DNA of 64,000 nucleotides from Candidatus Bathyarchaeota archaeon. GTDB taxonomy: Archaea > Thermoproteota > Bathyarchaeia > Bathyarchaeales > Bathycorpusculaceae. The number at the start of each line of letters is the position of its first letter. Position 1 is the stretch's first letter. This document shows positions 3,489 through 61,720 of this stretch, piece by piece. The translations under genes were made by a program, and so were the position numbers. The stretch covers positions 1,728,001 to 1,792,000 of the forward strand of contig OY970280.1 in the NCBI GenBank assembly GCA_963715865.1, in the 5' to 3' direction. The notes under the pieces were generated by a model. The model searched no databases, was not told where the DNA came from, and saw only the letters and a program-made list of their open reading frames with translations.

Positions 3489-3562
3489 GGGCCGGTAGTT
3501 CAGCTGGTATGAACGCTTGACTTGCACTCAAGAGGTCGGGGGTTCAAATCCCCCCCGGTCCA
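3489..3562 (+). tRNA. tRNA-Ala(TGC)
   Basis: Full cloverleaf: acceptor GGGCCGG/CCGGTCC+A, anticodon arm CTTGA-CTTGCAC-TCAAG, T arm GGGGG-TTCAAAT-CCCCC. No intron and no encoded CCA. Confidence 0.95.
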
Positions 3563-3876
3563 CTTCAAAATTGTTTTCAAATTCTTGCGAAGAAGAGGTA
3601 GCAGTCGAAGCATAATAACCCGTGAAGCATTTAAGCAACCCTAAAAAAATCGACCCTGCGCGCTGTTCAGATCATTGGAGGCCAACTGGCAAGAGAATAC
3701 CGTGCTCATCGCAAAACAGCACACACGTAACCGGTGGATTTCTTACACTGCGCTACCAACGGTAAGACCAATGATAGATCTGAAGGATCAAAGAAGCGTA
3801 TATATCCTTCAACTTAGATTGCTCTGAGCTTGTTTTAAATACTTAAACGCTCCAATTAATATGTGGGGAAGGAATA

Positions 3877-4077
3877 GTGTTGGAAGTACAACATGTGTGC
3901 TTCAATGAGTTCCCCGATCAATGCGTAGGATGCCCAGAATACAGTGAAACAAGGCAAGATCAGGCAACGCAACTCATATTGCTTACAGGGATGGGGATGA
4001 TGTACCCGCCATACGCGAAAAAAATCGTCAAAGAATGCAAGCGGTATCACAAGCGCAAAGTTGAATATCTGAGGTAG
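3877..4077 (+). CDS. Small Cys-containing hypothetical protein
   Basis: 66-aa ORF with 4 Cys. Only plausible gene in the first segment. No recognised family. Confidence 0.35.
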   Translation: MLEVQHVCFNEFPDQCVGCPEYSETRQDQATQLILLTGMGMMYPPYAKKIVKECKRYHKRKVEYLR

Positions 4078-4420
4078 AAAGAAGCTCAGCGCAACCCCGT
4101 ATAAGCAACCATAGAATAGACAAAGTTGAATGCGGAAACTAAGTATCGGGGAAAAGTCTCGATTTCTATGCCACTTCTTAGATTGCGCTAAAAATAGCTA
4201 AATGAATGCTGGGTGAATTATCATATGAGTCGCACTTTTTAGAGCCGCTTTTCTTGGTTTGGATTTATCAGCGCTCGCCTCCTCTCTAGTCATAAGATTT
4301 GTCCTTGAGAATCGATTCGTAGTCTTACTTATAGAAAAGAACAGAAAAAGAAAACACAGAAAAGCTCACCACTGGCACGAGTTCAAATCTTTGTCACTCT
4401 TAGAAGATGAAAAAAACAAA

Positions 4421-4481
4421 AAATAGGGGAATTGCGGGTGACATCTCCATTGTAGGCGGGGTTCAAATCCCCCCCGGTCCA
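4421..4481 (+). repeat. att-like site R2: non-tRNA arm plus exact 24-bp tRNA-Ala 3' end
   Basis: 4458-4481 GGGGTTCAAATCCCCCCCGGTCCA is identical to 3539-3562. The preceding arm GGGGAATTGCGGGTGACATCTCCATTGTAG is nearly identical to the arm of R4. Confidence 0.9.
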
Positions 4482-4671
4482 TTGTGCGGCTTGAACCCAA
4501 CACGGTTCAAATCCCATAGAGACTAGAACTATTTTGGGTTCAGAACTGATTAGATTCAAGATGTACATTTCAAGTTCCGGGTTTTTCCACTTGTCCTAAT
4601 CGCTTGTTAAGCAAAGCTTTATTCGTTGTTCCACTCATAAATTCTGTTATCACATTCATGGAGGCGAATTC

Positions 4672-4842
4672 ATGGCAAAATGTAAAACATGCGGAACAGA
4701 AGCTGCTTCACCGAGGAAGAAATGGGTTATGGCAGGTAGAGCCGACAAAACAGGAAAGAAAACCCAGTTGGAAATTGGACTTTTCGACTGCGCAAAATGC
4801 AAAAAAACCTTCCGCGCTACCCTAAGCAAAAAGAAGATCTAA
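4672..4842 (+). CDS. Cren7-like chromatin protein with two CxxC pairs (56 aa)
   Basis: Manual translation gives MAKCKTCGTEAASPRKKWVMAGRADKTGKKTQLEIGLFDCAKCKKTFRATLSKKKI, matching the Cren7 pattern K-x-W-x-[LM]-A...IGLF...K-x-FR. GGAGG SD upstream. Missed by the ORF track. Confidence 0.75.
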   Translation: MAKCKTCGTEAASPRKKWVMAGRADKTGKKTQLEIGLFDCAKCKKTFRATLSKKKI

Positions 4843-4923
4843 GACTGCTTGAAACTGACAGCACATCAAATCACTCCGTCTTAACTTTAAGAATCCATTT
4901 TCCTTTAGGATTGCCGTCTAAAT

Positions 4924-5097
4924 CTACCCCCTGCCCTTTAACACTTTAAATTCGCCCTGTTTCAAACCCAAATTTTGCATGGCGTATTCTGTTGCTTCTT
5001 TAATCGTACAGAATCCAGCTGGTTTCTTTGCCTCGGTCTTAGTAAATCCCCATTCTGGCGGAACTAAACTGTCTATCTGCAAAACTCTTAATCTCAT
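4924..5097 (-). CDS. Small hypothetical protein (57 aa)
   Basis: Manual translation MRLRVLQIDSLVPPEWGFTKTEAKKPAGFCTIKEATEYAMQNLGLKQGEFKVLKGRG. Perfect GGAGGTGA SD 7 nt upstream. Confidence 0.5.
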   Translation of the reverse strand: MRLRVLQIDSLVPPEWGFTKTEAKKPAGFCTIKEATEYAMQNLGLKQGEFKVLKGRG

Positions 5098-5353
5098 TCC
5101 TCTCTCACCTCCTCAAGGAAAATAGCGAAATATTCTTTGACGCGACCGTCTCGTTACTTGATGTCTTCGCTCCAGCCATTATAGAATGGAAATCGCTGTT
5201 AAAGCTTGCTTATCCCCCTAAAAAGTCTCCTTCAAGCCAATTTTATGTATCAGAGAAAAATAGGGAACGCGCGGGAAGCTTCTATACACTGGCAACGTAA
5301 GGCTTTTGTGAAGGGTATTTAGGCATCCGCTACACTATAAGAAGCGATGTTTA

Positions 5354-5914
5354 ATGCCGAAGACTAAAGCCATAATAAACATTCAGAACGTTGTTGCTTC
5401 GGCCACTTTAAATCAGAAAGTTGACTTAAACGCGATTGCGAAGAGTTATCCAACCGCAGAATATCGTCCGGACCAGTTTCCCGGATTAGTGTTTAGGCTT
5501 AAGAGACCGAAGACGGCTACGTTGATTTTTGGCTCTGGTAAAATGGTTTGTACAGGAGCAAAATCGGGAAAGGAATCCCGCAGAGCAATCATGAAAGTTG
5601 TTAAAGAACTAAAAAAGAATGGAATAATCATTATTAGCAAGCCGGACTTGAAGGTTGTGAACATCGTTGCTTCTGCAAGTCTAGGCGGAAAGGTAGATTT
5701 GGAGGAGACAGTTTCCACGCTTAGAAACACGATGTATGAGCCGGAGCAGTTTCCAGGCTTGGTCTACAGGATGGACGAGCCTAAGGTGGTCATGCTGATA
5801 TTTGCAAGCGGGAGCCTTGTTTGTGCCGGCGCGAATAAAGAACAGGACGTTTATGACGCAGTGCATAAGCTTCATGAAATATTGGAGGAACAAAACCTCA
5901 TATTCTACGAATAA
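5354..5914 (+). CDS. tbp: TATA-box-binding protein (probably a paralog)
   Basis: Two TBP repeats: NVVASA...QFPGLVFR...LIFGSGKMVCTGAK and NIVASA...YEPEQFPGLVYR...LIFASG. Confidence 0.97.
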   Translation: MPKTKAIINIQNVVASATLNQKVDLNAIAKSYPTAEYRPDQFPGLVFRLKRPKTATLIFGSGKMVCTGAKSGKESRRAIMKVVKELKKNGIIIISKPDLKVVNIVASASLGGKVDLEETVSTLRNTMYEPEQFPGLVYRMDEPKVVMLIFASGSLVCAGANKEQDVYDAVHKLHEILEEQNLIFYE

Positions 5915-6055
5915 AACTTCATATGTTAATCGCCTTCGTTTGTGCATTCCTTATCGTAGTAAAGCAGAACACGCTTGTACCCGAAAACAATGGAAAGTGA
6001 ACATATGCCTGATCTAACTCATAATACTTTTAAGAGCAAATACGCGCGCAAATCG

Positions 6056-6709
6056 TTAAGCCTCCACAGCGGGTGAATCCGTTGGAGTAATTTGTGATTC
6101 GAAGTCTTCGACGTTGGTGAGGAGTCCTCTTGTTCCAATGCTTAATTGCCTTTCCCCTCTGAAGAGAGAGGCTCGAGCGTTCTCAATTCGAACTGTATCC
6201 CCCACGGAGACACAGCCTATCTGCTCATTCCACAAACAAAGTCTGATAGTTCCCGTCTCATCCCCAATCACTGCTTTAGACACGCTTGCATAGTTGCCAT
6301 ACCTAGTAATAACACGCCTTGGTTCTGCAACCTCCAAGATTTTAGCCTTCAAACTAACGTGGTTCATCCCAGACCGCACATCTCTGATGGAGCGACCCTG
6401 GGCCTTACGCCTCTTCCTAGAAAGATATCTAAGAATCGTGTCGGTTTCCAAGAATTTTCCAAGCGGATTATTTCTCTCCAACAGAAACTCTTCAGGGACC
6501 CGAAATTGCGCAAGGACTCCAACATCATTGGTCATCAAAAAGATTTTTTTTGCGTTTATCTCACCGCGGCACTCGATTGAAATGGGGCCACAGCTGGATT
6601 TCCTGTTTTCTCCAGCTTTGACCAGTGCGCTAAAAAACTCTTCAGGGTCAACTTCATGTTTTACTGAAAGAAAAGCAAGATATGGCCCCATTGACCGTTT
6701 ATGTCTCAA
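6056..6709 (-). CDS. Single-stranded DNA-binding protein (one OB fold) with ~100-aa N-terminal extension
   Basis: C-terminal half VSLKAKILEV...IGDETGTIRLCLWNEQ...VGDTVRIENA is typical of crenarchaeal-type SSB/RPA. Confidence 0.8.
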   Translation of the reverse strand: MRHKRSMGPYLAFLSVKHEVDPEEFFSALVKAGENRKSSCGPISIECRGEINAKKIFLMTNDVGVLAQFRVPEEFLLERNNPLGKFLETDTILRYLSRKRRKAQGRSIRDVRSGMNHVSLKAKILEVAEPRRVITRYGNYASVSKAVIGDETGTIRLCLWNEQIGCVSVGDTVRIENARASLFRGERQLSIGTRGLLTNVEDFESQITPTDSPAVEA

Positions 6710-7026
6710 GGTTCTTCATCCTTTTCACTTTTCATAATGCGAGATAATTATGCTCTCTCAACCAGTCTGACCCGTTTCGTCTATACCGCCAAGTGATTTC
6801 GTCTTGCTCGTCCGTCGGAGAGCATTCAGGTTTTGGCTCCAAACAAGCAAAGGGATAGGATGGCAAAGAACGCTCGAACCGTATTCGAGGCAAATGAAGT
6901 GGCGCGTCTAGATCAGAGAAAGCGACGTCGTCTTGGTTTTTCCACGGGATTTTCAATCGGACAGCAGAAGACCAAAACACGCCGCGCCTTAATGGTTACA
7001 TAGCGCTCATATTTCGCAAGGTATTC

Positions 7027-7314
7027 CTACTCTTTTGTAAGCATTATTTCAATCGTTGAAACCATCCGCGCTCTAGTTTCGCCCTCTCTCGGCGGCATCT
7101 CCTCTGTTCCTATCGCGATTTTGCTTACTTTCAGGTCTTTTAGGAAGCGGTTTCTCGCTATTTCAGCTGCGTCAACAGCTGTAGTTATTGCTTTTCCTCT
7201 GGCCTTCAAGGTTATACCTTTAGCATTGCTCGCCGATAGGCCTGTAATTATCGCTAGAACATAGTCCATTGGCATTTTACTTCCAACGAAAACAATTCCC
7301 GATTTTTCAACCAT
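7027..7314 (-). CDS. albA: Second Alba paralog
   Basis: Highly similar to 175-465, sharing FLKDLKVSKIAIGT.EMPPREGE.R.RMVSTIEI. Confidence 0.95.
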   Translation of the reverse strand: MVEKSGIVFVGSKMPMDYVLAIITGLSASNAKGITLKARGKAITTAVDAAEIARNRFLKDLKVSKIAIGTEEMPPREGETRARMVSTIEIMLTKE

Positions 7315-7361
7315 TTTTCATCACCATTTAATCATAACGCTACTCCCCTATACTACGCAAC

Positions 7362-7373
7362 CTTCCTTATAAA
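7362..7373 (-). promoter_or_regulatory. TATA-box-containing promoter motif of second alba
   Basis: Reverse complement is TTTATAAGGAAG, identical to 74-85. Confidence 0.55.
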
Positions 7374-7539
7374 GCGATTAAACAACAGAGCATCCTGAGG
7401 ATGTTTCAGTGCGGCTCCCTTATCTTAGATTCTGGTTTTAGACACGGCACGCACATTGTGGATTTGTTTGATAAGCGTGTTTTGGCTGTGTTTAAGGAAT
7501 AAAAACCATTTACACCAATTTAGCAACGCGTGGCACGCT

Positions 7540-7990
7540 TCAGTATTCTTCCTTCTTCCAGATGTTGTATGGGCACTGTCTCCAACAGTATGTGCTTGCC
7601 TTGTAAATACAATTCTCACATTCGAGCCTGTCAAACCACCGTCTACGTCTGCTCACTGGCAGCGCCCTCCATACTCTTCTATACTGCCTTCCTCATTAAG
7701 TCTTGGATTGCGCCAGTTATTCCGTCAGGATAAAATGTATTCATAACCTTCTGAACGAACCCTCTTCAGGTAGAAGCTTATAGCCTCTTTTGTACATGAA
7801 ATTGTCCGAGAAGCATTTTGCCAAACGCGAGTGCACGTATGCCTGTTCCGAAATTGGAAAAAATTGTTTCCATTCGTGGGATTAAAAGGCAGCTTTTGGC
7901 TTCGTATCTGGTTTTAATTTCCTTGGAGAAACCGTCCTTCCCAAACTTGCAAAAGAATCCGAGAACGAAATTAAAACCACTTTTAGCCAT
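7540..7990 (-). pseudogene. Fragmented hypothetical gene(s), ending in a Cys-rich peptide (CENCIYKASTYCWRQCPYNIW)
   Basis: Protein-like stretches continue across several frame changes. No family recognised. Confidence 0.3.
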
Positions 7991-8056
7991 TTAGGAACAA
8001 TCATCCGCGCTTTAACTGCAAAGTATAAAGTTAGAAACCTTGCATTTAGTAATTTA

Positions 8057-8082
8057 TTCTACATTAGTGGAATAATGTAGAA
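8057..8082. promoter_or_regulatory. Perfect 10-6-10 inverted repeat TTCTACATTA-GTGGAA-TAATGTAGAA
   Basis: Arms are exact reverse complements. Lies between divergently oriented genes. Confidence 0.6.
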
Positions 8083-8285
8083 CCAGTAAAATCCTTGGAA
8101 GATAACCATTATACAGAAGGCGAAATCATGGGCGATCACCGATGCGAGAATTGCGGGAAGGTAGAAAATTCTAGTTGAGCGCTGGGATGATATAGGAGAT
8201 GGCTTCGGCGAATCAAGAAAAGCGCGGTTCTAATTCACAAAGCGTATATCCATGATAGTTGTAATTTATGCAGAAAGGTTTCGAT

Positions 8286-8579
8286 ATGAGACGGTCCAAG
8301 CTTGAAATGTACGTGGATATCCTTAAGGTTCTTGCGTAGCGTGGTCCATTGAAGCTAACTCACATAATGTACAAGGCTAACGTGAACTGCAAAGTGCTGA
8401 AGGAATACTTAGACTTCCTAGTCGGTCACGGCTTGGTTGAAGAAAGAATTGTGGGGAAGCGAAGAGTGGTTTACGCAACTACTCAGCGCGGCGTAACGGT
8501 TCTGAAATACTTCAGAGAACTGGAACAAGTGCTTCCTATAGTGGAAGAAGCCAGAAACGGCATGTTTGTTCCTTTTTGA
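8286..8579 (+). pseudogene. Winged-helix transcriptional regulator (MRRSKLE.. type) interrupted by in-frame TAG at 8337-8339
   Basis: ATG at 8286 gives MRRSKLEMYVDILKVLA*RGPLKLTHIMYKANVN...Y.TT.RG, a continuous wHTH across the stop. Confidence 0.8.
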
Positions 8580-8673
8580 CTTCCGTCTAAGTAAAGCGTG
8601 CACGCAAAGTTGTGGCTTTTTTGTTGGCTCTTGTTTTAGGAGGATTTTTCAGTTAAGGGTTCCGCCCCCTTTT

Positions 8674-8700
8674 GGGTTCAAATCCCCCCCGGCCCCACCA
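8674..8700 (+). repeat. att-like site R3: tRNA-Ala-type 3' half ending GGCCCCA-CCA
   Basis: GGGTTCAAATCCCCCCCGGCCCCACCA. Same T arm as 3540-3558 but a different acceptor end with encoded CCA. Lacks the shared arm. Confidence 0.85.
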
Positions 8701-9124
8701 CAACAATCCAAACCCAATTCGCGGATCATATTATTTGGTGCTTTCTGAACAATTTGACCACCTTAAATTCGTATATGAACTCAAAATCAGCATCTATTTA
8801 GGTCCAGATGCTTTCTTTTTGTTTCTTGCTTTTGTCGGGAAATAATAGGGGCTTTTTCCACTGGAAATTGCACACTATTAGTTGGCGTAATCCTTTTTTC
8901 ATTCTTTTTATTGTAGCGAAATCTTTAGCCAAGAAGTTTGAGCAGACTGGCGTAAGTTTGACGGCGTCAATGGAATAATCTGAAGACGATATGTGAATCA
9001 TTTAGAGATAGTTTTCATTTCATCTTAATTATTATTTTGGGTCATGATTTCGGGGTCATAATTGTTTTATTAATTTAACGTCACAAAGGAGTAATATATT
9101 TAGGAAAGATATGGTTGGAATTAT

Positions 9125-10423
9125 ATGCGGATTGGATTCTTCGTTTGGGAGTATCCTCCTTCAATTGTTGGAGGTCTGGGCACTTACGCGGAAAACATAA
9201 CGCGTGAATATGTTTCTATGGGGCATGATGTAACCCTTTTTACGCTCAATCCCGGCAACTTAAAAACAAGAGAAGTTATAAGGGGCGTAGAAGTTCATAG
9301 ACCACTTATTTCGGATGCAAGTAATGTTTTTCCAATGTTTGTAGTGGATGACTTAAAAAAATGGGGAACAAACATCCGCATGTTCAATGACATTTTCACC
9401 TACAACATTTTGAGTGCATCAAAATTCATAAACAGCATGCTGAAAAAGGAAAACTGCAATTTCGACGTCGTTTGCGTGCACGACTGGCTAAGCAGTATAG
9501 CTGGGATTATGGTTAAGAACGAAACGAAAATCCCAGTTGCGTTTCATGTCCATAGTACAGAATGGGGAAGAAGCGGAGGGTCAGGTTCTGGAGTTGTTTC
9601 TCATTTTGAATGGGCAACAGCTGAAAAAGCAGACAGAATCTTGACTGTGAGTCATGCTATGAGGGAAGATTTAGTGAAGCACGGTTGGTCAAGTTCTAAA
9701 ATAAGCGTTGTTTGGAATGGCGTAGATAGCGAACGATACAATTTAAAGAAATGCAAGACTGAAGAGATAGAAGCTATTCGAGAAAGATACGGCATCAAAT
9801 CAGACGAAAAAATGATACTCTTTTTAGGTAGGCTAACGTGGGTGAAAGGGGTCATGAACCTCGTTCAGGCGATGCCTATGATCTTGGCTGAATATCCAAA
9901 AGCAAAACTAGTAATTTTGGGCAAAGGAGAACAACAAAATGACATCATTGAAACCGCACGTAGACTTGGAATAGCAAAAAACGTCGTTTGCAGATTTGAT
10001 TTTGTGCCAGAAAAAGATCGTATCCTACATTACGCTGCATCTGACTTGTGTATCTTTCCTTCAACATATGAACCCTTTGGCATAGTGAGCCTAGAAGCTA
10101 TGTCAATGGAAAAGCCAATAGTTGTGGGTGCCCACGGCGTGGTCGGCTTCAGAGAACAAGTCATGCCCGATGGTCCTGACAAAAATGGTGTACACGTAAA
10201 TGGGGAGAGCCCAAGCGATATCGCATGGGGGATAAAAGAAATATTGTGTGACGATAACAGGGCTAAACAATGGGGCAAAAACGGAAGAAAACGGGTTTTA
10301 CAATATTTCCAGTGGAGAAAAGTTGCAGAACAAACGTTGCAAATATACGAGCGACTCCAGCGCCCAGATGAACAAGATGAACAGGTAACTTTCGGATTAG
10401 TTGAAAAACCATTTGTCTCATAA
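9125..10423 (+). CDS. GT4 family glycosyltransferase (glycogen synthase/RfaB-like)
   Basis: WEYPP..VGGLG, HDWL, FLGRLTWVKG, PS.YEPFGIVSLEAM. Confidence 0.92.
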   Translation: MRIGFFVWEYPPSIVGGLGTYAENITREYVSMGHDVTLFTLNPGNLKTREVIRGVEVHRPLISDASNVFPMFVVDDLKKWGTNIRMFNDIFTYNILSASKFINSMLKKENCNFDVVCVHDWLSSIAGIMVKNETKIPVAFHVHSTEWGRSGGSGSGVVSHFEWATAEKADRILTVSHAMREDLVKHGWSSSKISVVWNGVDSERYNLKKCKTEEIEAIRERYGIKSDEKMILFLGRLTWVKGVMNLVQAMPMILAEYPKAKLVILGKGEQQNDIIETARRLGIAKNVVCRFDFVPEKDRILHYAASDLCIFPSTYEPFGIVSLEAMSMEKPIVVGAHGVVGFREQVMPDGPDKNGVHVNGESPSDIAWGIKEILCDDNRAKQWGKNGRKRVLQYFQWRKVAEQTLQIYERLQRPDEQDEQVTFGLVEKPFVS

Positions 10424-12170: not shown

Positions 12171-12303
12171 GAAATATATACGAAGCGCGCATGGTATTGT
12201 GCAAATCCCTTAACGAAATAAATATTTAACTTCGCGCTTGCACCTTAATTAAGGGCACCCGCTACTCGGATAAAAATTCATGCAAATCCAATAGGACCCA
12301 ACA

Positions 12304-12372
12304 AAAAAATGGGGATTTGCGGGTGACATCTCCACTGTAGACGGGGTTCAAATCTCGCCCGGTCCACTTCAA
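12304..12372 (+). repeat. att-like site R4: shared arm plus tRNA-Ala 3' half plus CTTCAA tail
   Basis: 12343-12372 matches 3539-3568 at 28/30 positions. The arm closely matches R2. Confidence 0.9.
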
Positions 12373-12467: not shown

Positions 12468-12698
12468 TTGTCTGGTGATGTGGTGAAATTCGGTGTTGTA
12501 GTCGAAAAAGATGAAGATGGCTATTATGTTGCGTCCGTTCCCGAGTTGCCCGGTTGCCACACCCAAGCTAAAACTCTTGATGAAGTAATGAAGAGAATTA
12601 AAGAGGCCATTCAACTTTGCTTGGAAGTCGAAGGAACGAAAGGCAAGGGACGGAACGAACTCGTGGGAGTCCAGTTTGTAGAAGTTCAAGCTGAATGA
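12468..12698 (+). CDS. hicB: HicB family antitoxin
   Basis: VEKDEDGYYVASVPELPGCHTQAKTLDE...IKEAI.L.LE. Confidence 0.92.
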   Translation: MSGDVVKFGVVVEKDEDGYYVASVPELPGCHTQAKTLDEVMKRIKEAIQLCLEVEGTKGKGRNELVGVQFVEVQAE

Positions 12699-12924
12699 GC
12701 TTAAAGCCTCAACCAGCTAAGAAAATAATTAAAGTGCTCTCCAAGTTGGGTTTTGAAGTTGTAAGAAAACGAGGCAGTCATGTTATCCTGAAGCATGCTG
12801 ATGGAAGGCTGACTGTGGTTCCAGTTCATGCAGGAGAGGAAAAGGCTCTGGGCTGCTAAATAAGATAATTAAGGACACGGGACTATCGAAAGAGGAATTC
12901 ATCAAGTTATTAGAAACTGCCTGA
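12695..12924 (+). pseudogene. hicA: HicA family toxin with a 1-nt frameshift (premature TAA at 12857-12859)
   Basis: MSLKP..AKKIIKVLSKLGFEVVRKRGSHVILKH.DGR.TVVPVH then GSGLLNKIIKDTGLSKEEF in a shifted frame. ATGA overlap with hicB. Confidence 0.88.
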
Positions 12925-12966: not shown

Positions 12967-13034
12967 AAAAAATTGAATCCGCGGAGGTAATCTCCGCTTG
13001 CGTGGGGGGCTCAAATCCTCCCGGTTCACTTCAA
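12967..13034 (+). repeat. att-like site R5 (degenerate arm plus tRNA-Ala 3' half plus CTTCAA tail)
   Basis: GGGGCTCAAATCCTCCCGGTTCACTTCAA, preceded by an A-tract and GCGGAGGTAATCTCCGC, which is related to the R2/R4 arm. Confidence 0.8.
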
Positions 13035-17959: not shown

Positions 17960-18622
17960 TTGTTTTATTTTGGAACGATAAGTTTGGTTTTGTTTGCATT
18001 TTTTCTCTTAACAGTAGGTAACTTTTATGGAATTACATTTTATAGTTTTGTGATTGTAACGGGCTTATTTTTGCAAGCTTTTGGTTGGGCTTTTCTTATG
18101 ATAAAAATTCAAAAATACCATCCTTTTGTTAGAGCAAGTGATGAGGAAATCAAAAGAGAAGATGACGTTTTGTTACAAGGTGCGACATTCTCTTCTGCAA
18201 TTCTGTTTTTTTATGTTAACATTTTATTTCCAGTCTCTGTCAAATTAGCTTTTAGTTTAATCATTGTTTTCTTAACTGGTTCCTTCTACTGCTTTAGAGC
18301 TTATGCTAAAATCAAGGATAGCCCTGAGTATAGAGTTATTTCTTCGGCGATTTTTCTGTATTTAGCTGGCACGTATGTTTTTATGCTATTGTTTTTATTT
18401 ATTCCGAATTTTTTCCCGATTATTTTCCACTGGCACCCAGCGATACAAATTCTAATTTTAGAGCTTTTGCTTGCAATTCCGCTTTCTGCGTTTGCAGTAT
18501 CTTTATTGTGTTTTCCAAGACGATATGGATATTTCCCAAGAATACGTTGGATTAGAGGAGGTCACTTTCCAAAGCTAGAAGTAACTAATATCTTTGACGA
18601 AATAAATGCTGACTGCATGTAA
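17960..18622 (+). CDS. Multi-pass membrane hypothetical protein (AT-rich gene)
   Basis: 220-aa ORF with about 6 hydrophobic segments. Confidence 0.65.
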   Translation: MFYFGTISLVLFAFFLLTVGNFYGITFYSFVIVTGLFLQAFGWAFLMIKIQKYHPFVRASDEEIKREDDVLLQGATFSSAILFFYVNILFPVSVKLAFSLIIVFLTGSFYCFRAYAKIKDSPEYRVISSAIFLYLAGTYVFMLLFLFIPNFFPIIFHWHPAIQILILELLLAIPLSAFAVSLLCFPRRYGYFPRIRWIRGGHFPKLEVTNIFDEINADCM

Positions 18623-18709
18623 GTTACTTCAAACGACTTTCAAGTCATGGCAAAAACTTAAAACTGGAAAGCGTAGACATAGCGTAAAACAACCAAAAAA
18701 ATCGAGTTT

Positions 18710-18760
18710 GCGATTTAATAGTTAAAATTACAAACTCTCTAAAACTAAGCGATTTAATAG
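18710..18760 (+). repeat. 12-bp direct repeat GCGATTTAATAG x2
   Basis: Exact copies at 18710-18721 and 18749-18760, upstream of 18816. Confidence 0.7.
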
Positions 18761-18815
18761 GTTATTCTATATATAATGGTTGTTATAGTCTCTTGGAAGC
18801 ATAATTACCGTTAAT

Positions 18816-19262
18816 TTGGGGGAGAATAGGTTGGATGAAGTATTAGACATGTTAGATAAAACTGCAAAGCGAATACAGAAAGTTGTTGACGAAACAAAAG
18901 AAGCAACTTGGAAACAATCAGCCCTATACGAGCAAACCATGCAATCACCCGAAGCTTCTCAAGAGCAAAAAATCAAGGCGTTTATCAAGAAAACCCGTTA
19001 TTTAGACCAACTTGAAGCCTTAAACTCCCAGCTTAGTTTACTATATACTCTTCAGATATTTGCGTTTAAAGTTAAAGTGCTTGAGGTAACAGTTGGAAAC
19101 ATCAACGAACAACTTGCAAAGTCTGGGGTTCTCCTCAAAACGGCAGAATTAGAGAGCATAAAGACGAATATTGATTCGCTCAAAATCTTAATTGAAGCGC
19201 AGTATGAATCCATGAAGGAAATCCGAGAGAGCCAAAACAAAACCTTAGACTACATTCATTAG
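18816..19262 (+). CDS. Conserved-looking coiled-coil hypothetical protein
   Basis: 148-aa helical ORF with heptad character. Confidence 0.75.
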   Translation: MGENRLDEVLDMLDKTAKRIQKVVDETKEATWKQSALYEQTMQSPEASQEQKIKAFIKKTRYLDQLEALNSQLSLLYTLQIFAFKVKVLEVTVGNINEQLAKSGVLLKTAELESIKTNIDSLKILIEAQYESMKEIRESQNKTLDYIH

Positions 19263-19347
19263 AATGGTTAAATAAAAAGGGCAGCCTGGTGGTTTTCACC
19301 ACTCATCAGGTTGTACTGCCTGCGATGTATCAGTTTTTTCTGAAGGC

Positions 19348-20271
19348 TTATTCTACGAGTTTTTCCCAGCTTGTAACGAAGTCAAGAACTTCTTGACCTT
19401 GCTTGCCGCCATAGCTCTTTAAGCGTTCTCGAACGTCAACCTGAGCAATTGCAGCTTTCTGGAAATCCTGCATCTGTTTAGCTTTGTCGGTTAAGTAAAG
19501 AATTCCGTCTACGCCTGCTCTTGCCATACGGACTGATAATGTTAAGAGTTCACTTGTGGTTGGCGTTTCTCTCGGGTCATCGCCTGGACCGATAACGTAT
19601 AATGCAATGTTGAGAGGTACGTCTTTGAAGAGTTTCTTGAAGTTACGGGTAAGCATTTCCCAATACCACGGTGTAGCGTAGTTTTTACTAAACATGACGA
19701 CGAGAAATTCGTCAGTTAACGGTGCCAAATCATCAAAATCGACGCCGAAGCGTTCATAGTTTGTAACTGGGTCTGGGAGAACGCCGATGACAAACTTTTT
19801 CTTCGCTCGGTCGCGTACTCGCTCGCTTACTTGCGCCATGTAGTCGGTGATTTCTTTTCTGCGCCATTCATACCAGCTTAAGCCACTTTTCGCGTGGAGT
19901 TCTTTGCAGCGCGGGCAAATGCAGTGACCGTGTTCTGCGAAGTGGATACTGTTTAGCCATATTCCCGGGCTCTTTCTTGCAACGTCTTCGATGTAATCTA
20001 ATTGTTCTGCACGGTGCTCTGGTTGGGTTGCACAGAGAACGTCCCATCGGACGTTAAAGTTGTCGTTTGTTCTCCATGCAGGACCTAGGTCTGACTGCGA
20101 AATCCAGTCTGGATGATTACGGGCAGTAACGTTGTCTCCGAAAATCGCAATGTTGCTGTACATTTCAGGGTGCGGTGGCATTCGTCTGCCTACTTCTGGT
20201 TTAACTCGGAAAAGGTCAAAGTCAAAGCCTGGAACTTTCTTTGCTTCAAACATGTATGTGCCGAATTTCAA
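19348..20271 (-). CDS. Putative glycoside-hydrolase-like TIM-barrel protein with CxCxxC motif
   Basis: LCAT.PE.R...LDYIED...GIWLNSIHF..HGHCICPRC...WR...IT. Start reassigned to the TTG at 20271, which has an upstream AGGT. Confidence 0.6.
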   Translation of the reverse strand: MKFGTYMFEAKKVPGFDFDLFRVKPEVGRRMPPHPEMYSNIAIFGDNVTARNHPDWISQSDLGPAWRTNDNFNVRWDVLCATQPEHRAEQLDYIEDVARKSPGIWLNSIHFAEHGHCICPRCKELHAKSGLSWYEWRRKEITDYMAQVSERVRDRAKKKFVIGVLPDPVTNYERFGVDFDDLAPLTDEFLVVMFSKNYATPWYWEMLTRNFKKLFKDVPLNIALYVIGPGDDPRETPTTSELLTLSVRMARAGVDGILYLTDKAKQMQDFQKAAIAQVDVRERLKSYGGKQGQEVLDFVTSWEKLVE

Positions 20272-27032: not shown

Positions 27033-27103
27033 GCTGAGGTGGCCGAATTGTTCAGCGACAGCCTGCAAAGCTGGGTATATGGGTTCAATTCCCGTCCCCA
27101 GTT
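27033..27103 (+). tRNA. Degenerate tRNA-Cys(GCA) (probable pseudo-tRNA)
   Basis: Cloverleaf GCTGAGG/CCCCAGT+U73, anticodon loop CTGCAAA, T arm ATGGG-TTCAATT-CCCGT. Mismatches in the acceptor (A-C), D (C-A) and anticodon (A-G) stems, and no D-loop GG. Confidence 0.7.
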
Positions 27104-28306: not shown

Positions 28307-28556
28307 TTAGGGGGTTGTGTTGTTTAGGTTTTTTCGGATGTTGTTGATGTTGTCAAGCATTTTCGTTTCCGCACTTTCAGGCGGCAAAGCGTCATTTGAG
28401 CTACTTCCTGTTGGGCTTATTGTTACTTCTAGGATGGTGCCTGTGAGTTTTTTTCTTCTCTTTGCTTGAGGACTTCCATGGTTAGTTTTGGGATTGTTAG
28501 GCGGCCGTCGCTGACCATTTTTGCGAAGAACGCTTCTTCTTGGTAGCCGTGCTGAG
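28307..28556 (-). pseudogene. Frameshifted AbrB/SpoVT-like gene, paralog of 29496-29759
   Basis: FAKMVSDGRLTIPKLTMEVL then LTGTILEVTISP in another frame. The A7 run is one base short. Confidence 0.7.
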
Positions 28557-28591
28557 TCGAAGGGTTTGAGGCTGACTTTTATGAGCACAGA

Positions 28592-29014
28592 CTAGAGGTC
28601 TTTTGCAAAGTCTGCGGGCTCTATTCTTTTTATTCCTTTGATTTTATCGTATATGTGTTCGGTGCTGAGTATTGTTTTGTCTCTAGCTATTGCTGTTGCA
28701 AGGTGATAGGCATCGAAGGGAGAGGTATTGTACTCGCTTATCAACAGTGAGGCAGTTAGACATATCTCAGGAGTTATTGCAATCCACTCGACGTTCCGTA
28801 AGTGCGTGAGAACATTCACGGCTTTAGTGAGCTCACCTAGTAATTGCCTATTGTAAAACCAAAATATGATTTCCTGTATCACAGCGGTTGAAGCATAAAC
28901 ACCTTTTAGCTCACCGCAATCTATTCTCTCCAAGATTTTCTCAGCGGTAAGTTTCAATCGGTCATCTTTCTTTATGACAGCTAATAAAAGGTCCGATTCG
29001 ATTAGAATCCACAA
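28592..29014 (-). CDS. vapC: PIN-domain toxin (VapC)
   Basis: ILIESDLLLA...VIQEI...SPFDAYHLATA...ILSTEH.YDKI. Confidence 0.88.
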   Translation of the reverse strand: MWILIESDLLLAVIKKDDRLKLTAEKILERIDCGELKGVYASTAVIQEIIFWFYNRQLLGELTKAVNVLTHLRNVEWIAITPEICLTASLLISEYNTSPFDAYHLATAIARDKTILSTEHIYDKIKGIKRIEPADFAKDL

Positions 29015-29272
29015 TCACCTTTTTAATTTTCTGTCCACAAGCCTTCGAGCTGTTTCTAAAGCTTCCATCCGCATTTCATGAACGGATTCTTTAACGTCAA
29101 TTTTGAAATCCTTTAATTCCTTAAGTGGATGTTTAGAAACTGGCACCATCGCCACATGGTCGCCTAAGTCAACATAAATGATGCTGTCTCCCTCATCAAT
29201 CCTGTATTTTTTCCTGATTGCTTTGGGGATTGTGGTTTGGCATTGCCTTGTAACCTTGACTTCGTAAGCCAT
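29015..29272 (-). CDS. AbrB/MazE-family antitoxin (VapB)
   Basis: KVTRQCQTTIPKAIRKKYRIDEGD. Directly upstream of the PIN gene. Confidence 0.88.
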   Translation of the reverse strand: MAYEVKVTRQCQTTIPKAIRKKYRIDEGDSIIYVDLGDHVAMVPVSKHPLKELKDFKIDVKESVHEMRMEALETARRLVDRKLKR

Positions 29273-29283
29273 AATAGTGCACC

Positions 29284-29352
29284 TACTAAATTAGTATGCA
29301 AAATACTATAAATTGTTTGCTTCTACTATTATCGACTTCTACTATTATCGAC
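29284..29352. promoter_or_regulatory. TA operator region: palindrome TACTAA-A-TTAGTA and tandem 16-bp repeat TTCTACTATTATCGAC x2
   Basis: Palindrome at 29284-29296. Tandem copies at 29321-29336 and 29337-29352. Confidence 0.6.
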
Positions 29353-29495
29353 CGAGAAATTCGTTAAAAATTCCCGAAATTTCCATAACTGTTCTTATGC
29401 AGAACAAGATTTGTCGTTTTCTGTTTTCTACCAGAACAATTTTCTAGGCAGGTAAGGTCAGACCTGAATTTTTGCAATTCTTCATTCTAAATTTG

Positions 29496-29759
29496 TTAAC
29501 TTGTGTTGCCCAGATTTTTTCGGATATCCTTGATTTTGCCCAACATTTTCGTTTCAGTACTTTCAGCGGGCGAAGCGTCATTGGAGCTTCCTGCTGGGCT
29601 AATTTTCACTTCAAGGATGCAGCCTTCAAGGTTTTTTTCTTCTATTTCTTGCAGGATTTGCATGGTTAGTTTTGGAATTGTTAGGCGGCCGTCGCTGACC
29701 ATTTTTGCAAGGAACTCTTCTTCTGGGTAGCTGTCGAGGTTTGGGTATTGTTTGAACAA
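29496..29759 (-). CDS. AbrB/SpoVT-like swapped-hairpin protein
   Basis: EEFLAKMVSDGRLTIPK...LEG.ILEVKISP. Confidence 0.7.
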   Translation of the reverse strand: MFKQYPNLDSYPEEEFLAKMVSDGRLTIPKLTMQILQEIEEKNLEGCILEVKISPAGSSNDASPAESTETKMLGKIKDIRKNLGNTS

Positions 29760-49787: not shown

Positions 49788-51851
49788 CTAATTGTGGTCT
49801 TTTAGTTGGAGTTGGTCAAGCATCACCAGGGGGCTGTTGGTGGGCGGGAGGCATGTTTGGTTTTGGCAGACGTATGCGGTTGCTTTGCCTTCGATTTGCT
49901 GGTAGCCTAAGCCGGCTTTGCTTGGATGCTTAAGGGCAATAACCGTTGATGGTAGATAATGCTTCCTTATGGCGTTCAGCATGTCGGATGTGTCTTTTTC
50001 CTTTAAGTCGCCGACTACTGTCACGCTGTAGGATGGACCGATTAGAAAGCCGAGTGTGGAAAGGAAGAAAGTGAACGCTTCTGGCGCGCCTTCTATTTCT
50101 TGTGCGAATGTTTTGGTCATTTGGGTTGCCATCGTGTCGTATGTGGGTTCGTTGGTTAAGCGGCTGAGCCACAGTAAATCGTGTAGTGCTACCGAGTTGC
50201 CTGATGGTATCGCGCCGTCGTAGAGCTGCTTCATTCTTGGCATGGTGGCATCTCCGTTTTTCTGCGTTTGGTAGAACCCTCCGTTTTTGTCGTCCCAAAA
50301 CTTGGTTACCATGGTCTTCGTTAAATCAGTGGCAGCTTGAAGGTACTTGTCCTCGAATGACGCCTCGTAAAGCTCGATTAGTCCATACACGAAGAAAGCG
50401 TAGTCGTCCAAGAAACCTTCCACGGCTCTTTCGCCCTTTGCGTAACGGTGATAGAGCACGCCATCTTCGCGCATGTAGTCTAGGATGAAGTCGGCAGTTT
50501 TCATGGCGGTTTCAAGATATTTCGGTTCATTGAGAACGGTGCCTGTTTTGGCTAAGGCTGCGATCATTAAGCCGTTCCAGTCAGTTAAGATTTTATCATC
50601 TGTTGCGGGGGGTAAGCGTTTTTTTCTTGCTTCAAAGAGTGCGTCTCTTATGTTGTGCACGCGGGCGATAAGCTCTTCAAATGTTAAGCCTTTGTATGGT
50701 GCAAGTTCCTCTAGGGATTCGGCGATGCGGAGTATGTTTTTGCCTGAGCCGTCAGGAAAGTTGCCTTGTGGCTTTAACCCGAATATATGAACTGCTAAAT
50801 CGGCGTCGGCAGGAGGCAGCGTGTCGAGCACTTCGTCCATGGTCCAGAGGTAGAATTTGCCTTCTTCGCCTTCTATGTCGGCGTCTTGAGCTGAGTAAAA
50901 ACCTCCTTGTGGCGATGCTAAATCTCTTAGGGCGTAATCTATAATTTCTTTGGCTGCAAGCACGTATCTTTTGGTGCCTGTTGCCTGAAAAGCTTCCGTA
51001 TAGGCTAATGCCATCAGTGCTTGGTCGTAGAGCATTTTTTCGAAGTGCGGAACCAACCATTCTGCGTCAGTGCTGTATCGGTGAAAGCCGAAGCCTAACT
51101 GGTCGTAAATGCCTCCAAGCCGCATCTGCGTTAGCGTTTTTTCCACCATTGCCAGGGCGTTTTTTTCGCCTGTTCGCGCATAGTATCGGAGGAGGAATAG
51201 GAGGTTGTGGGGTCTTGGGAATTTGGGTGCTGTGCCGAAGCCGCCGTTTTTGTCGTCAAACTCCAGCGTTAAACGGTCGTAAGCGTCTTGCAAGACTTCT
51301 TTGCCGAGTTCTTTTTGGGGTGTTCTTTTTTCCATGGTTTCTATGCGGCTCTTGATGTCGGCGCCCACCATTTCCAGCTGTGCCCTCTGCCCTTTCCATA
51401 TTTGCATAACCTGCGGAACCAGATCCAACATGCCTATCAAGCCAGGTCTGCTGTGTTTTGGTATGTAGCTGGCGGCATAAAACGGGTTAAGCCGTTGCGT
51501 CATGAGTATGTTGAGTGGCCAGCCGCAGTTTCTTCCCATGGCTTGGCAAACTGCCATGTACTGGGCGTCTAAGTCGGGCCTTTCTTCACGATCAACTTTA
51601 ATGCAGACAAACGCCTGATTAAGCAGGTTGGCGACTTCTTGGTCGCTGAAGCATTCCGCTTCCATGACGTGACACCAGTGGCAACTGGCGTAGCCTATGC
51701 TCAGGAAAACTGGTTTGTTTTCAGCTTTCGCTCTATCGAAGGCTTCTTGGTTCCAAGGGTACCAGTCTACTGGGTTGTAGGCGTGCTGGAGAAGGTAAGG
51801 GCTTTTTTCATTTATCAGCCTGTTAGGCTTCTTTTCTTGATTTGGCTGCAA
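49788..51851 (-). CDS. Thioredoxin-domain / glycosidase-like protein (YyaL/SPATA20 family)
   Basis: [42 protein letters not shown]. Confidence 0.94.
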
Positions 51852-51990
51852 AAAAGGGACCTGCTTACTTTCATTATGAGCATGCGCCTTTTATTAACCG
51901 TTCGAGAGCATTGTAAGTATAGGATTGTATTGGAGTGTTGATTCCGAAGTGTTTATAGTTTACATTATATATTTTATTAACTGATCTTTA

Positions 51991-52434
51991 ATGAGTGAGA
52001 AAACAGTTTCGATTCTTAGGGCGCTGGGGAACCCGAATAAGGCAAAGATAATTGCGCATCTGGCTAAGCATAGGGGAGAGACTGCGGAAGGCATAGGCAA
52101 GCATCTGGGCTATCCGCTACCAACAGTCTACAAGTATCTAAGAGAGCTTGAGGCTGCAAGGGTCGTGGAGAGTGAAGCTAAGGGTAATACGAGGATTTAT
52201 TATGCGGGCGATTTCAAGCTTGAAGTGTCACCTGAGAAACTGATGGAGGCGTTCGAGGAACAAACAATAGAAGACGTTTACAGAGCCAAGTTTGGCGATG
52301 AAGGAATGAGAAGGCTTAGAGAGGTTGCTAAGAAGGCGAAGGCTGGCAAAATGACCTACAGGCAAGCGGCTTCCACTTTGGGCATAACCTATTATGAGTT
52401 TGTCTCGCTTTTGGAAGAGACTGGCGCAGCTTAA
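51991..52434 (+). CDS. ArsR-type HTH fused to a UPF0175-like antitoxin domain
   Basis: LRALGNP.K.KII..L...TVYKYL.ELE. C-terminal MTYRQAASTLGITYYEF..LL. Confidence 0.75.
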   Translation: MSEKTVSILRALGNPNKAKIIAHLAKHRGETAEGIGKHLGYPLPTVYKYLRELEAARVVESEAKGNTRIYYAGDFKLEVSPEKLMEAFEEQTIEDVYRAKFGDEGMRRLREVAKKAKAGKMTYRQAASTLGITYYEFVSLLEETGAA

Positions 52435-52931
52435 TGCATAAGCGCTTAGTCGTTGACTCATCTGTTCTAATAGCTTTAGATAGTCAGGGAAGACTTGAGG
52501 GTCGTTTAAGACAGAGAAAGGATGAAGGCTATGAGGCAATTATCCCTGAGGCAATAATGAAAGAAGTAATCGAAGAACCAGTGAAGATTGCTGAAGAAAT
52601 TAGGGAAAGGTCTCCAGTTTTGGCGGACAAAGTAAGGGCGTCAGCCATGAGCATTAACGGCGCGATTGATCAAGGGCTGATAAAAGTTGTAACTGTAGAT
52701 TACAGAAAGCATTCTAAGGTTATGGATAACGTCAGGAAACACTTGAGTAAGCTAGAAGCGAAGCCTGAACACATGATAAAGAAGGGAGACACAGAGCTTA
52801 TAGCGCTAGTAATTCAGCTCTATTACGAAAATAAGGAGAAAGTTTTCGTGGCAACGTTTGATAAAGGGCTACTCAAAGCCCTTAAGCCATTCAGCAAAGA
52901 AGTAGAATACGAAGTCTTAGAAAGACTTTGA
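52434..52931 (+). CDS. PIN-domain protein (putative toxin)
   Basis: LVVDSSVLIAL, IPEAI..EV, GDTELIAL, VATFDKGL. Translationally coupled to the upstream gene. Confidence 0.75.
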   Translation: MHKRLVVDSSVLIALDSQGRLEGRLRQRKDEGYEAIIPEAIMKEVIEEPVKIAEEIRERSPVLADKVRASAMSINGAIDQGLIKVVTVDYRKHSKVMDNVRKHLSKLEAKPEHMIKKGDTELIALVIQLYYENKEKVFVATFDKGLLKALKPFSKEVEYEVLERL

Positions 52932-53067
52932 AGATGAAGACCACAAAATTGTTTTGAATCTTTTGAGCTTACTAATGCTCTATGTATGTCTTTTTTGCTG
53001 CTTGGCCTTTTATTAACCTGTTTCGTGAGTTGTTGTAGGCATCTTGACTTTTGAAAAATTGTTGTAG

Positions 53068-53514
53068 TTATCTTTTGGTTTCTATGATTTGAAGAAATTC
53101 GTTCACTGGCATTATTTGCGTTTTCTTGTAGCAAGCTACTTTGAGGAGGTGCTTGTCGCCGCTAACTATGTAGTCTGCTCCAGCTGCAAAGGCGCATTCT
53201 ATGAACTTATCGTCTGCCGGATGTTCCTTAACAGCATTAAGCTTTTTCGTGACTTTGACGAATTTCGCAATTTTCAGCACTGTTTCAATTAAATCTTCTC
53301 TGCGTAATCTTTCAGCTTGGTAGGTCTTCTTAAGCTTAGGATAAGTTAAAACCTGATTAACTTCTGCGACAATTTCTTCGGACGTAAGGATGCTGACTCT
53401 GTACTGTTCGGCGGCCTTTATGATTTCTGCGGGTTTCCCACCCCAAAGCAATGCTGAAACCCAAACGTTTGTGTCAAGAACTACTTTTGGCTCTTGCTTC
53501 GTCGATGAGGGCAT
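53068..53514 (-). CDS. Putative toxin-antitoxin PIN toxin
   Basis: VVLDTNVWVSALL, DDKFIECA..AGADYIVSGD.HLL. Confidence 0.9.
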   Translation of the reverse strand: MPSSTKQEPKVVLDTNVWVSALLWGGKPAEIIKAAEQYRVSILTSEEIVAEVNQVLTYPKLKKTYQAERLRREDLIETVLKIAKFVKVTKKLNAVKEHPADDKFIECAFAAGADYIVSGDKHLLKVACYKKTQIMPVNEFLQIIETKR

Positions 53515-53734: not shown

Positions 53735-53791
53735 GCTCTCACCACTCAAAAGTAAGAACATTCTTACTTATAACAATATTGCGAAAATAGC

Positions 53792-53883
53792 CTAGGCTTT
53801 ATCGATGGCTTCTCGACCCCACGGAAACCAGTCAACTGGGTTATAGGCGTGCTGGAAAAGGCAGGCACTTTTTAGCTATGAGA
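53792..53883 (-). pseudogene. Decayed 5' fragment of a YyaL-family gene
   Basis: Translates [22 protein letters not shown], versus [23 protein letters not shown] in 49788-51851. Confidence 0.8.
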
Positions 53884-61719: not shown

Positions 61720-61720
61720 T

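Follow-up and report, generated by a model that had tools for sequence, protein, structure and literature searches.

The 64-kb window analyzed here, the whole 64,000-nucleotide stretch of a bathyarchaeal contig, contains a composite island headed by a tRNA-Ala gene (Table 1). Within it, segment 4482–8673 carries genes for TBP, Alba, an SSB-like protein with an OB fold, a Cren7 homolog that keeps its Cys residues, and a wHTH interrupted by an in-frame stop. An earlier note had listed TBP, SSB, Alba, Cren7-like, and wHTH genes here; profile and fold searches recovered each where it had been placed, although the wHTH proved to be interrupted by a TAG. That note had overlooked a broken aIF-1A gene, which lies as two opposite-strand pieces between SSB and Alba. 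Segment GC is in line with host GC. A promoter/terminator scan, bacterial in type, stayed at chance level, and inspection by eye showed no common promoter motif.

Table 1. Features of the tRNA-Ala island and of the segment within it
Feature	Position	Strand	Remarks
tRNA-Ala(TGC)	3489–3563	+	3′ end is R1; heads composite island reaching ~13034
R2a att-like end	4415–4481	+	Dispersed arm motif and tRNA-Ala 3′ fragment
R2b att-like end	4484–4530	+	Second, palindromic; conserved left cassette edge
Zn-ribbon-type Cren7 homolog	4672–4842	+	56 aa, 4 Cys, CxxC...CxxC; accessory lineage, 66% to core copy
57-aa ORF	4924–5097	-	Points away from TBP; conserved ahead of many accessory copies of it
Accessory-clade TBP	5354–5914	+	186 aa, intact; PF00352, two repeats, E 7e-62
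SSB-like protein	6056–6709	-	~100-aa N-terminal α/β domain and OB fold; PF21473 E 1e-10
aIF-1A pseudogene, C-terminal piece	6732–6824	-	Residues 68–101
aIF-1A pseudogene, inverted middle piece	6859–6968	+	Residues 42–78, with stop
Accessory-lineage Alba	7027–7314	-	95 aa, intact; TIGR00285, PRK04015
Small Cys-rich reading frame	7549–7692	-	No called start; family recurs beside accessory TBPs
HTH_45/Sso10a-like wHTH	8286–8579	+	PF14947 E 3e-12, 46.9 > 25.5 bits (gathering)
R3	8640–8700	+	Palindromic-family arm and tRNA 3′ fragment; right edge per earlier note
GT4 glycosyltransferase	9125–10423	+	Outside R3; family often neighbors cassette blocks elsewhere
R4	12300–12372	+	R2a-family arm and tRNA-Ala fragment
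R5	12975–13034	+	Degenerate att-like end; closes island after hicBA-like pair

The Cren7-like protein combines the Cren7 β fold with Cys pairs at turns and a conserved Trp (W18, invariant). Its AF2 model (pLDDT 87) retrieved Cren7 chains at ranks 1–5 (probability 0.97–1.0, TM ~0.64), with an E of only 0.12; a second fold search gave Cren7 as the top VIA match (Z 4.7), tied with NrdR and ZPR1. Pfam returned no Cren7 match at E 0.1, and the family profile reaches Cren7 chains at E 0.03–0.4. Copies in other islands are 85–98% identical (dN/dS 0.08). Two histones are also encoded by the host genome.

The SSB-like protein is one of four long paralogs in the genome (42–44% identity), which has shorter OB genes elsewhere. 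Its OB model matches Sulfolobus SSB 1o7i (E 3e-9, rmsd 1.6; Z 14.1), whereas it differs from the crenarchaeal-type single-OB SSB in not being a stand-alone OB, having an extra 100-aa N-domain, and in scoring 87 bits against an equivalog cut-off of 176. That N-domain matched no family, and fold searches barely probed it. Alba exceeds the cut-offs of TIGR00285 (93.1 > 88.25 bits) and PRK04015 (97.6 > 90 bits) and is 73–74% identical to its two nearest genome paralogs (dN/dS 0.11). The 57-aa ORF matched no Pfam or Atlas family; copies 81–96% identical adjoin TBP elsewhere (dN/dS 0.26). The aIF-1A remnant is common to five other loci (L151, L162, L178, L256, and L273). The TAG of the wHTH lies at 8337–8339 (codon 18) in this assembly, where four related loci read CAG; it may be a strain mutation or an assembly error, the two not being separable. 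Pyrrolysine read-through was ruled out, no PylRS (PylS) scoring over cut-off in the genome. In one RNA run, short metatranscriptome contigs fall on TBP, SSB, Alba, and the 57-aa ORF at 90–98% identity, which marks related strains with possible DNA carry-over and is not proof of transcription.

The earlier note took 4482–8673 to be att-bounded. tRNA-3′ direct repeats do lie at both borders, and an exact 19-mer is common to R1, R2, and R3 (at 3540, 4459, and 8674; 0 expected from 100 shuffles). However, R2 consists of two stacked att-like ends, R2a and R2b, and the conserved left edge is at ~4498, not 4482: identity to two other loci (L256 and L221) begins at 4498, and in both an IS1182-type end is inserted there. 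T-arm fragments are dispersed, with two arm patterns matching 22 and 10 times in the genome (0 in shuffle), and the R2a arm with its T-arm core also stands beside a tyrosine integrase in an IMG/VR tailed-virus contig (L227). Weak contig joints of the kind that excision at the repeats would leave (empty site and circle) connect 4474 to 8709 and 8694 back to 4485, but their short side is only 31 letters and both arms are dispersed repeats. For structured RNA, an Rfam search of the repeats gave tRNA-Ala only. The 64-kb window contains no tyrosine integrase, and the genome has nine PF00589 matches; this profile misses an integrase-like ORF at another locus (L241), and the segment has no ORF of comparable size. 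In relatives, tyrosine integrases do occur at this tRNA-Ala; across 20 of them the site is hypervariable, with unrelated cargo, and the cassette is present in none (0/20). The repeats are tRNA-3′ att-like scars with a putative role in movement.

This complete genome has 4 TBP, 3 Cren7-like, and 4 Alba genes, and its core Cren7-SPase-TBP-pyrE locus lies elsewhere, away from the segment. The earlier description of the module as accessory holds, because other copies are present and the locus is not syntenic; the possibility that these are the only copies, or the core locus itself, is ruled out. The segment genes are extra copies belonging to lineages distinct from the core ones. The window TBP, a full-length archaeal TBP that aligns to P. 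woesei TBP without gaps, is 77% identical to the core TBP and 66% to the pelota-linked TBP. Accessory TBPs occur in 14/120 genus genomes (13 intact and 1 frameshifted) and also in family f6; the clade (branch 97/73) includes three f6 copies, the genus subclade stands at 98/89, and 0/17 accessory-clade tree rows are located at the SPase-TBP-pyrE locus. That the core Cren7-SPase-TBP locus was simply duplicated within the genome was ruled out, as the closest tree neighbors of the TBP are island copies from other genomes; it is also contradicted by the Cren7-like gene, which lies on either side of TBP depending on the locus.

Synonymous distances point the same way. Across the same 13 genomes, median dS was 0.17 for accessory TBP versus 1.27 for core TBP (accessory lower in 77/78 pairs), and the two sets of distances were uncorrelated (rho 0.006, Mantel P 0.48). 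The low accessory dS holds for G094 and G123, each of which has both TBPs on one long contig. As to whether such copies are in-paralogs or xenologs, a question the earlier note had raised, tree and dS identify the TBP as a horizontally spreading lineage, not an in-paralog.

The surrounding DNA recurs with it. In a related organism, 4498–8434 (3.9 kb) is found at 98.4% identity inside a tRNA-Ser(GCT) island whose flanks are 92–93% identical (L256); 5256–7399 adjoins tRNA-Leu at 93% (L273); and 4868–7749, at 91%, is followed by RpoB, CDC48, and SPFH genes (L224). IS elements flank the cassette as often as att scars. The whole 4.2 kb is present in 0 other genus genomes (120 examined), and gene content and order vary between loci. 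The notion of one att-bounded segment applies in part: at least one instance (L256) shows it travelling whole, but genus-wide it is a mosaic of blocks drawn from a larger pool. TBP, Alba, Cren7-like, and SSB genes remain linked through several gene orders. Transfer is at the DNA level: blocks bring their promoters and common pseudogenes along, both from one species to another and from one tRNA-linked or IS-rich site to another. An assembly artefact was ruled out: 23 peat/wetland DNA runs contain more than 60% of the sampled words, and L256 comes from a contig assembled independently. The segment is accessory and very probably mobile; its blocks would be passive cargo, moved by IS elements and by tyrosine integrases that target tRNA genes, both encoded at other sites.

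In other places the same blocks accompany second copies of RpoB, TFB, RpoP, thermosome, CDC48, and Vps4, and fuller versions also include PCNA and an SPFH protein; the segment is thus one piece of a larger pool whose genes have been shuffled. Accessory CDC48 (dN/dS 0.25) is present in 11/14 accessory-TBP carriers versus 7/106 other genomes, counts in which kin are not independent. A second RpoB occurs in G094 and G117, with dS 1.47 to the G117 core copy and 0.65 to another island copy. We read the segment as one piece of a horizontally circulating "second set" of genes for information processing and protein quality in Bathyarchaeia, an explanation to which, taken as a whole, we give about even odds.

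Both constancy and change mark the accessory TBP. Intercalating Phe 42, 59, 133, and 150, the Asn 12/103 pair, and E131 (acidic TFB loop) are kept in 112/112 of the closest homologs. The window TBP has Q11, V102, S154, A158, and N161 where core copies have E11, Q102, K154, T158, and K161; Q11, V102, and S154 are typical of the accessory clade, and A158 and N161 are rare. Q11, V102, and S/N154 are found in 112/112 closest homologs, and 17/80 metagenome loci of the wider clade have Q instead of V102. By a residue-to-DNA contact mapping that we take to carry over from yeast and Pyrococcus TBP work, the near-fixed substitutions appear to cluster on the DNA-binding face. Salt tuning was considered and rejected: Q11, D40, Q41, and V102 align with P. 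woesei E12, E41, E42, and Q103, presumably the residue numbers of the three-glutamate result, and positions 40–41 vary among homologs. The general form of that result is published (PMC3438722). Accessory TBP dN/dS is 0.24–0.29; at matched dS it is 0.29 versus 0.065 for core TBP, ~4.5-fold higher. The rise suggests relaxed constraint, which fits decay as well as retuning. The ratios of TBP, Alba, and the Cren7-like gene indicate purifying selection.

The best reading is an accessory transcription kit for stress or stationary phase that is transmissible and in part decaying; its functional side has about an even chance of being right. The accessory TBP would still bend TATA DNA and recruit TFB; its C-terminal half appears to have lost basic/polar contacts, so that it would rely more on TFB/BRE or an activator and serve a different promoter set. 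Additional Alba, Cren7, and SSB would cover DNA and shield it, and chaperone/AAA genes from the wider pool would deal with damaged protein. Such an optional programme would be useful at times only, hence frequent gain and frequent erosion, as of the wHTH and aIF-1A here. Among the candidate functions that the earlier note had named (chromatin remodelling, altered promoter selection, a stress or dormancy programme, host takeover), a stress role fits the companion genes and the predicted TBP surface changes. A precedent cited for this reading is Halobacterium TbpD, which is minichromosome-encoded and influences survival of heat as well as the levels of cctA and hsp1 (PMC2121645).

The same erosion could instead mark nearly neutral cargo: redundant paralogs in recombination hotspots, with a dosage or back-up benefit at most, being lost and forming no separate programme. 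We regard this as unlikely, though to be taken seriously. Breaks occur in many pool genes across the genomes, including frameshifts in TBP, RpoB, SSB, Vps4, and SPFH genes outside the window; the raised TBP dN/dS, the patchy presence, and the unrelated cargo at tRNA-Ala in 20 relatives also agree with it. Against it, 24/24 full-length accessory TBPs and 45/45 Albas have no internal stops (a coverage filter left out frameshifted copies), dN/dS is well below 1, near-fixed TBP substitutions seem to gather on the DNA-binding face, and the four linked genes stay together through different orders.

Alternatively, the blocks may be captured pieces of a large unassembled extrachromosomal element of Bathyarchaeia (megaplasmid, Borg-like, or big virus), an origin we consider improbable. 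Such an element would run host transcription, or seize it, with a TBP, TFB, RpoB, RpoP, PCNA, SSB, chromatin proteins, and chaperonins of its own, and hosts would pick up fragments that then decay. The pool does resemble a self-standing expression apparatus; a single donor population undergoing recombination would account for the low dS, the raised dN/dS, and the nearly star-shaped tree; fragments are scattered over many sites, vary in gene order, and are frequently broken; the R2a arm adjoins an integrase in a tailed-virus contig; and haloarchaeal minichromosomes carry most of their TBPs (PMC2121645). Yet the neighborhoods of accessory TBPs yielded no recognisable gene for virions, replication initiation, or conjugation, and the segment ORFs include no virion, replication, or transfer genes. 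Long contigs with accessory TBP are host chromosome, GC matches the host, and the arm motif is dispersed rather than cassette-specific. A viral origin specifically was rejected on IMG/VR searches: TBP and Alba had no relatives there, and R2b-type patterns gave none and one chance match. It is likewise improbable that the cassette and its sister blocks stem from an undescribed mobile replicon, or transmissible programme, of Bathyarchaeia that provides an almost full second transcription system (a TBP whose TATA-binding face is altered, TFB, RpoB, and RpoP, along with chromatin proteins and chaperones of its own) and redirects host transcription through exchange of basal factors and polymerase subunits. 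Old vertical duplicates, lost in most lineages with islands formed around them, are very improbable: the TBP clade has f6 members, so the lineage is old, and some carrier MAGs show 6–9% contamination, but accessory dS is seven-fold lower than that of core TBP and uncorrelated with host distances, insertion sites differ even between close relatives, and the cassette is more alike than its flanks, so that dS and site data already contradict this origin.

As a putative transmissible stress kit, the segment has partial counterparts. In a survey covering part of the literature, we found no description of the cassette. Bacterial tLST/LHR, the transmissible locus of stress tolerance, is an island that, like the blocks here, is mosaic and mobile and contains additional paralogs of chaperones and AAA+ proteins; no homology is claimed. 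To our knowledge, tLST has no basal transcription factor or RNA polymerase subunit. In Halobacterium sp. NRC-1, tbpA-D lie on pNRC100 and tbpF on pNRC200, and TbpD-TfbA serve a heat response (PMC2121645, PMC4230888). That multi-TBP/TFB system shares dispensable extra TBPs off the core locus, proposed alternative promoter use in stress, and a thermosome link. Halobacterium TBPs, however, are lineage expansions on large replicons, whereas here one TBP lineage crosses species in small chromosomal blocks that include chromatin proteins and SSB and, when fuller, RpoB, TFB, CDC48, Vps4, and thermosome.

Four-Cys Zn-ribbon-type Cren7 of Crenarchaeota and Bathyarchaeota is already described (Kaur et al., PMC5906684), and our model likewise matches Cren7 structures; an island-borne accessory lineage linked to a mobile TBP is absent from the available part of that account. 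The tRNA 3′ repeats, tandem scars, and hypervariable cargo resemble archaeal tRNA-targeted elements and islands, Bathy-6 regions, and proviruses (PMC11697101, PMC10848311), unlike which the segment lacks integrase, virion, and transfer genes and has basal transcription and chromatin machinery as cargo. The main text of the Bathy-6 paper does not mention TATA, Alba, or thermosome.

Vertical inheritance is assumed for core genes such as TBP, RNA polymerase B, Alba, and Cren7, two of which (RpoB and TBP) serve as phylogenetic markers. In this case, species of an abundant peat/sediment archaeon have recently exchanged a distinct lineage of such genes as linked blocks. Some peat-dwelling Bathyarchaeia have an extra transcription-start and DNA-packaging set, an unusual mobility for central genes, which may enable a second expression programme. 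With 77% identity and few DNA-facing differences, the TBP pair offers a natural test, outside haloarchaea, of whether an alternative TBP acts as an alternative sigma factor, and the cassette points to a possible donor element. Marker trees and contamination scores can go astray when they pick up island RpoB copies, which are 95–96% identical to core.

The segment between repeats R2 and R3 is real, accessory and mobile, and its present copy is partly decayed. All five genes that the earlier note had named there are present. TBP, Alba and wHTH pass family cut-offs, and the SSB-like protein consists of a 100-residue domain, with no match in a known-family search, followed by an OB fold (E 3e-9 against Sulfolobus SSB). 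A Pfam search of the 56-aa Cren7-like protein returned no Cren7 match; Cren7 chains head both fold searches, with the weak scores expected at such size, and four-Cys Cren7 homologs have already been described in Bathyarchaeota (PMC5906684). Codon 18 of the wHTH gene is TAG here and CAG in genomes G045 and G076 and loci L218 and L256. The gap between SSB and Alba contains an aIF-1A pseudogene, split over both strands into two pieces and found in several other genomes as well.

The source genome, a single contig of 2.35 Mb in which the window spans 1,728,001–1,792,000, encodes four TBP-like, three Cren7-like, four Alba, four long SSB-like and three close wHTH copies, together with two histones. 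By this count the segment's genes are extras, as had been proposed: Cren7-like, signal peptidase, TBP and pyrE form a conserved locus at 1.613 Mb that is found again across the class, and a pelota-adjacent TBP is the second conserved TBP. Close homologs of the window TBP are labelled Bathyarchaeia, and the cassette sequence is present in peat and wetland metagenomes.

The same 19 nucleotides of the tRNA-Ala 3′ end occur without mismatch in R1, R2 and R3. R2, R4 and, in degenerate form, R5 carry an upstream arm. A tailed-virus contig has the same arm ahead of a T-arm core and a tyrosine integrase, so we read these three repeats as att scars. A second palindromic end directly after R2 (R2b) is of the same kind as the R3 arm, and both arm types are dispersed in the genome (22 and 10 matches). 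No integrase was found in the window. In 20 relatives the tRNA-Ala site holds other cargo, with an integrase-like gene in three and the cassette in none. Peat contigs contain both excision-type joints (4474 to 8709 and 8694 to 4485), with 31 letters on one side, within dispersed repeats; these give only a hint of excision at R2/R3.

Mobility of the block, claimed from the sequence alone, is borne out by other sites. The JGI contig L256 carries 4498–8434 at 98.4% identity, running to the contig end, whereas the sequence on either side of the block is only 92–93% identical to the genome; the block sits behind an IS1182-type element in a tRNA-Ser(GCT) island, in opposite orientation to the tRNA. 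Partial copies adjoin tRNA-Leu (L273, 5256–7399) or are followed by RpoB, CDC48 and SPFH (L224, 4868–7749). Among the 120 genus genomes searched, no other holder of the whole block was found. In G045, whose core TBP is nearly identical to that of the source genome, TBP, Cren7-like, Alba and wHTH lie close to aIF-2 alpha in a different order. During transfer, pool genes would be passive, moved in trans by integrases and IS elements.

Thirteen of the 120 genomes have an intact accessory TBP, and one more has a frameshifted copy. In the tree, these TBPs and three copies from another family, f6, form one group apart from all core copies (97/73; genus part 98/89), which places the window TBP with island copies on the in-paralog versus xenolog question raised earlier. 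Accessory TBPs conserve four Phe, both Asn and the TFB loop without exception. Q11, V102 and S/N154 occur in 112/112 closest homologs, where core copies have E, Q and K; more distant clade members sometimes keep Q102. Residues 102, 154, 158 and 161, which by alignment we equate with yeast Q158, K211, T215 and K218, residues of the DNA-binding face, are all lost in the window TBP. Accessory TBP dN/dS (0.24–0.29) indicates purifying selection, yet exceeds that of core TBP at matched dS (0.065).

The cassette belongs to a pool of paralogs that is mobile and mosaic in make-up and on which selection, though relaxed, still acts. For most of the pool genes tested, dN/dS lies at 0.06–0.3, and many individual copies have been broken. 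The accessory Alba lineage occurs in about 50 of the 120 genomes, every TBP carrier included, and an accessory CDC48 (75% to core) in 18, 11 of which carry accessory TBP. Across genus genomes and 80 metagenome loci, neighbours include information genes (Cren7-like, SSB-like, aIF-1A, TFB, RpoP and PCNA) as well as thermosome pairs, a Vps4-like ATPase, SPFH, a glycosyltransferase and phosphofructokinase. Pool loci lie close to tRNA-Val, Phe, Ser, Pro, Ile, Leu or Thr, and to IS elements. Genomes G094 and G117 each have a second RpoB within an island and a confirmed core RpoB; island copies are nearer each other than the G117 island copy is to the G117 core gene, and dN/dS among island copies is about 0.04.

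We consider it an even bet that the whole is a conditional programme, in which the altered TBP would shift promoter use under certain conditions, extra chromatin and ssDNA-binding proteins would protect DNA, and extra chaperones would deal with damaged protein. Among known systems, the haloarchaeal one with multiple TBPs comes closest: its TbpD, encoded on a minichromosome, affects the genes for thermosome and small heat-shock proteins (PMC2121645; PMC4230888). The cassette may work similarly and is not a member of that system. Our literature search for such a cassette found no description. Near-neutral redundancy is a weaker candidate, which the many broken copies of pool genes would fit. Slightly less probable again, the genes could be fragments of a self-transcribing element not yet known. 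Compared with the conditional programme, vertical inheritance with loss is scarcely credible, given the dS comparison below.

Median dS between the 13 carriers is 0.17 for accessory TBP but 1.27 for their own core TBP, the accessory value being the smaller in 77/78 pairs, and accessory and core distances show no relation. Although some of the carriers are MAGs in many fragments, the dS result is no different for G094 and G123, whose two TBPs share a long contig. Accessory TBP has thus recently passed between species. What surprises is such recent movement of a TBP lineage that is linked to genes for chromatin proteins and, in the fuller versions of the cassette, to RpoB.

Additional features of the window, the source genome (G000), other genus genomes (G numbers) and island loci or contigs (L numbers)
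Location	Feature	Remark
Window 3877-4077	66-aa Cys-containing ORF, R1-R2 interval	80-97% copies in tRNA islands L182, L233, L240; no family found for the ORF
Window 5582	Single-base deletion within TBP, part of contigs from two peat runs	May mark frameshifted TBP alleles in the population
Window 12468-12905	hicB-hicA-like pair between R4 and R5	hicA shortened by one-base difference at 12842, absent from all peat contigs compared; assembly error or strain mutation
Window ~27040-27100	Degenerate tRNA-Cys-like sequence, T-arm intact	No ARAGORN call
Window 28315-29734, 51723-53873, 61691-63337	Paralogous gene pairs	
Window, close to end	28-nt repeat, both orientations	
G000 557083-557679 (L009)	Very divergent (33%) TBP-like gene	Flanked by type I restriction-modification-like genes; rRNA region and integrase nearby
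G000 493000-494750, 431600-433500, 673000-683400	Small clusters mixing CxxC proteins, aIF-1A, SSB-like and wHTH paralogs	Perhaps left by this pool at an earlier time
L077:12959-16330 (G094), L080:13939-17310 (G117), L187, L188, L224, L343, L345	Island RpoB, full-length or frameshifted	By accessory CDC48 and Alba
L079:11750-16333 (G097)	Tail sheath and tube-like genes, contractile injection system-like	Adjoining accessory TBP island
L254:4604-5374 and 18564-19823	Accessory Alba-DUF1508 fusion; weak tubulin/FtsZ-like gene	Another accessory TBP nearby
L227 (IMG/VR 3300043569_000003)	Tailed-virus-like: HK97-gp10 gene, R2a arm motif, tRNA core, tyrosine integrase	Probable att site of a Bathyarchaeia provirus
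L221:1421 and 3263, L224:413, L256:5849 and 7691	IS1182-type ends exactly at tRNA T-arm palindromes	Suggests that these elements target att scars; they may mobilise island cargo
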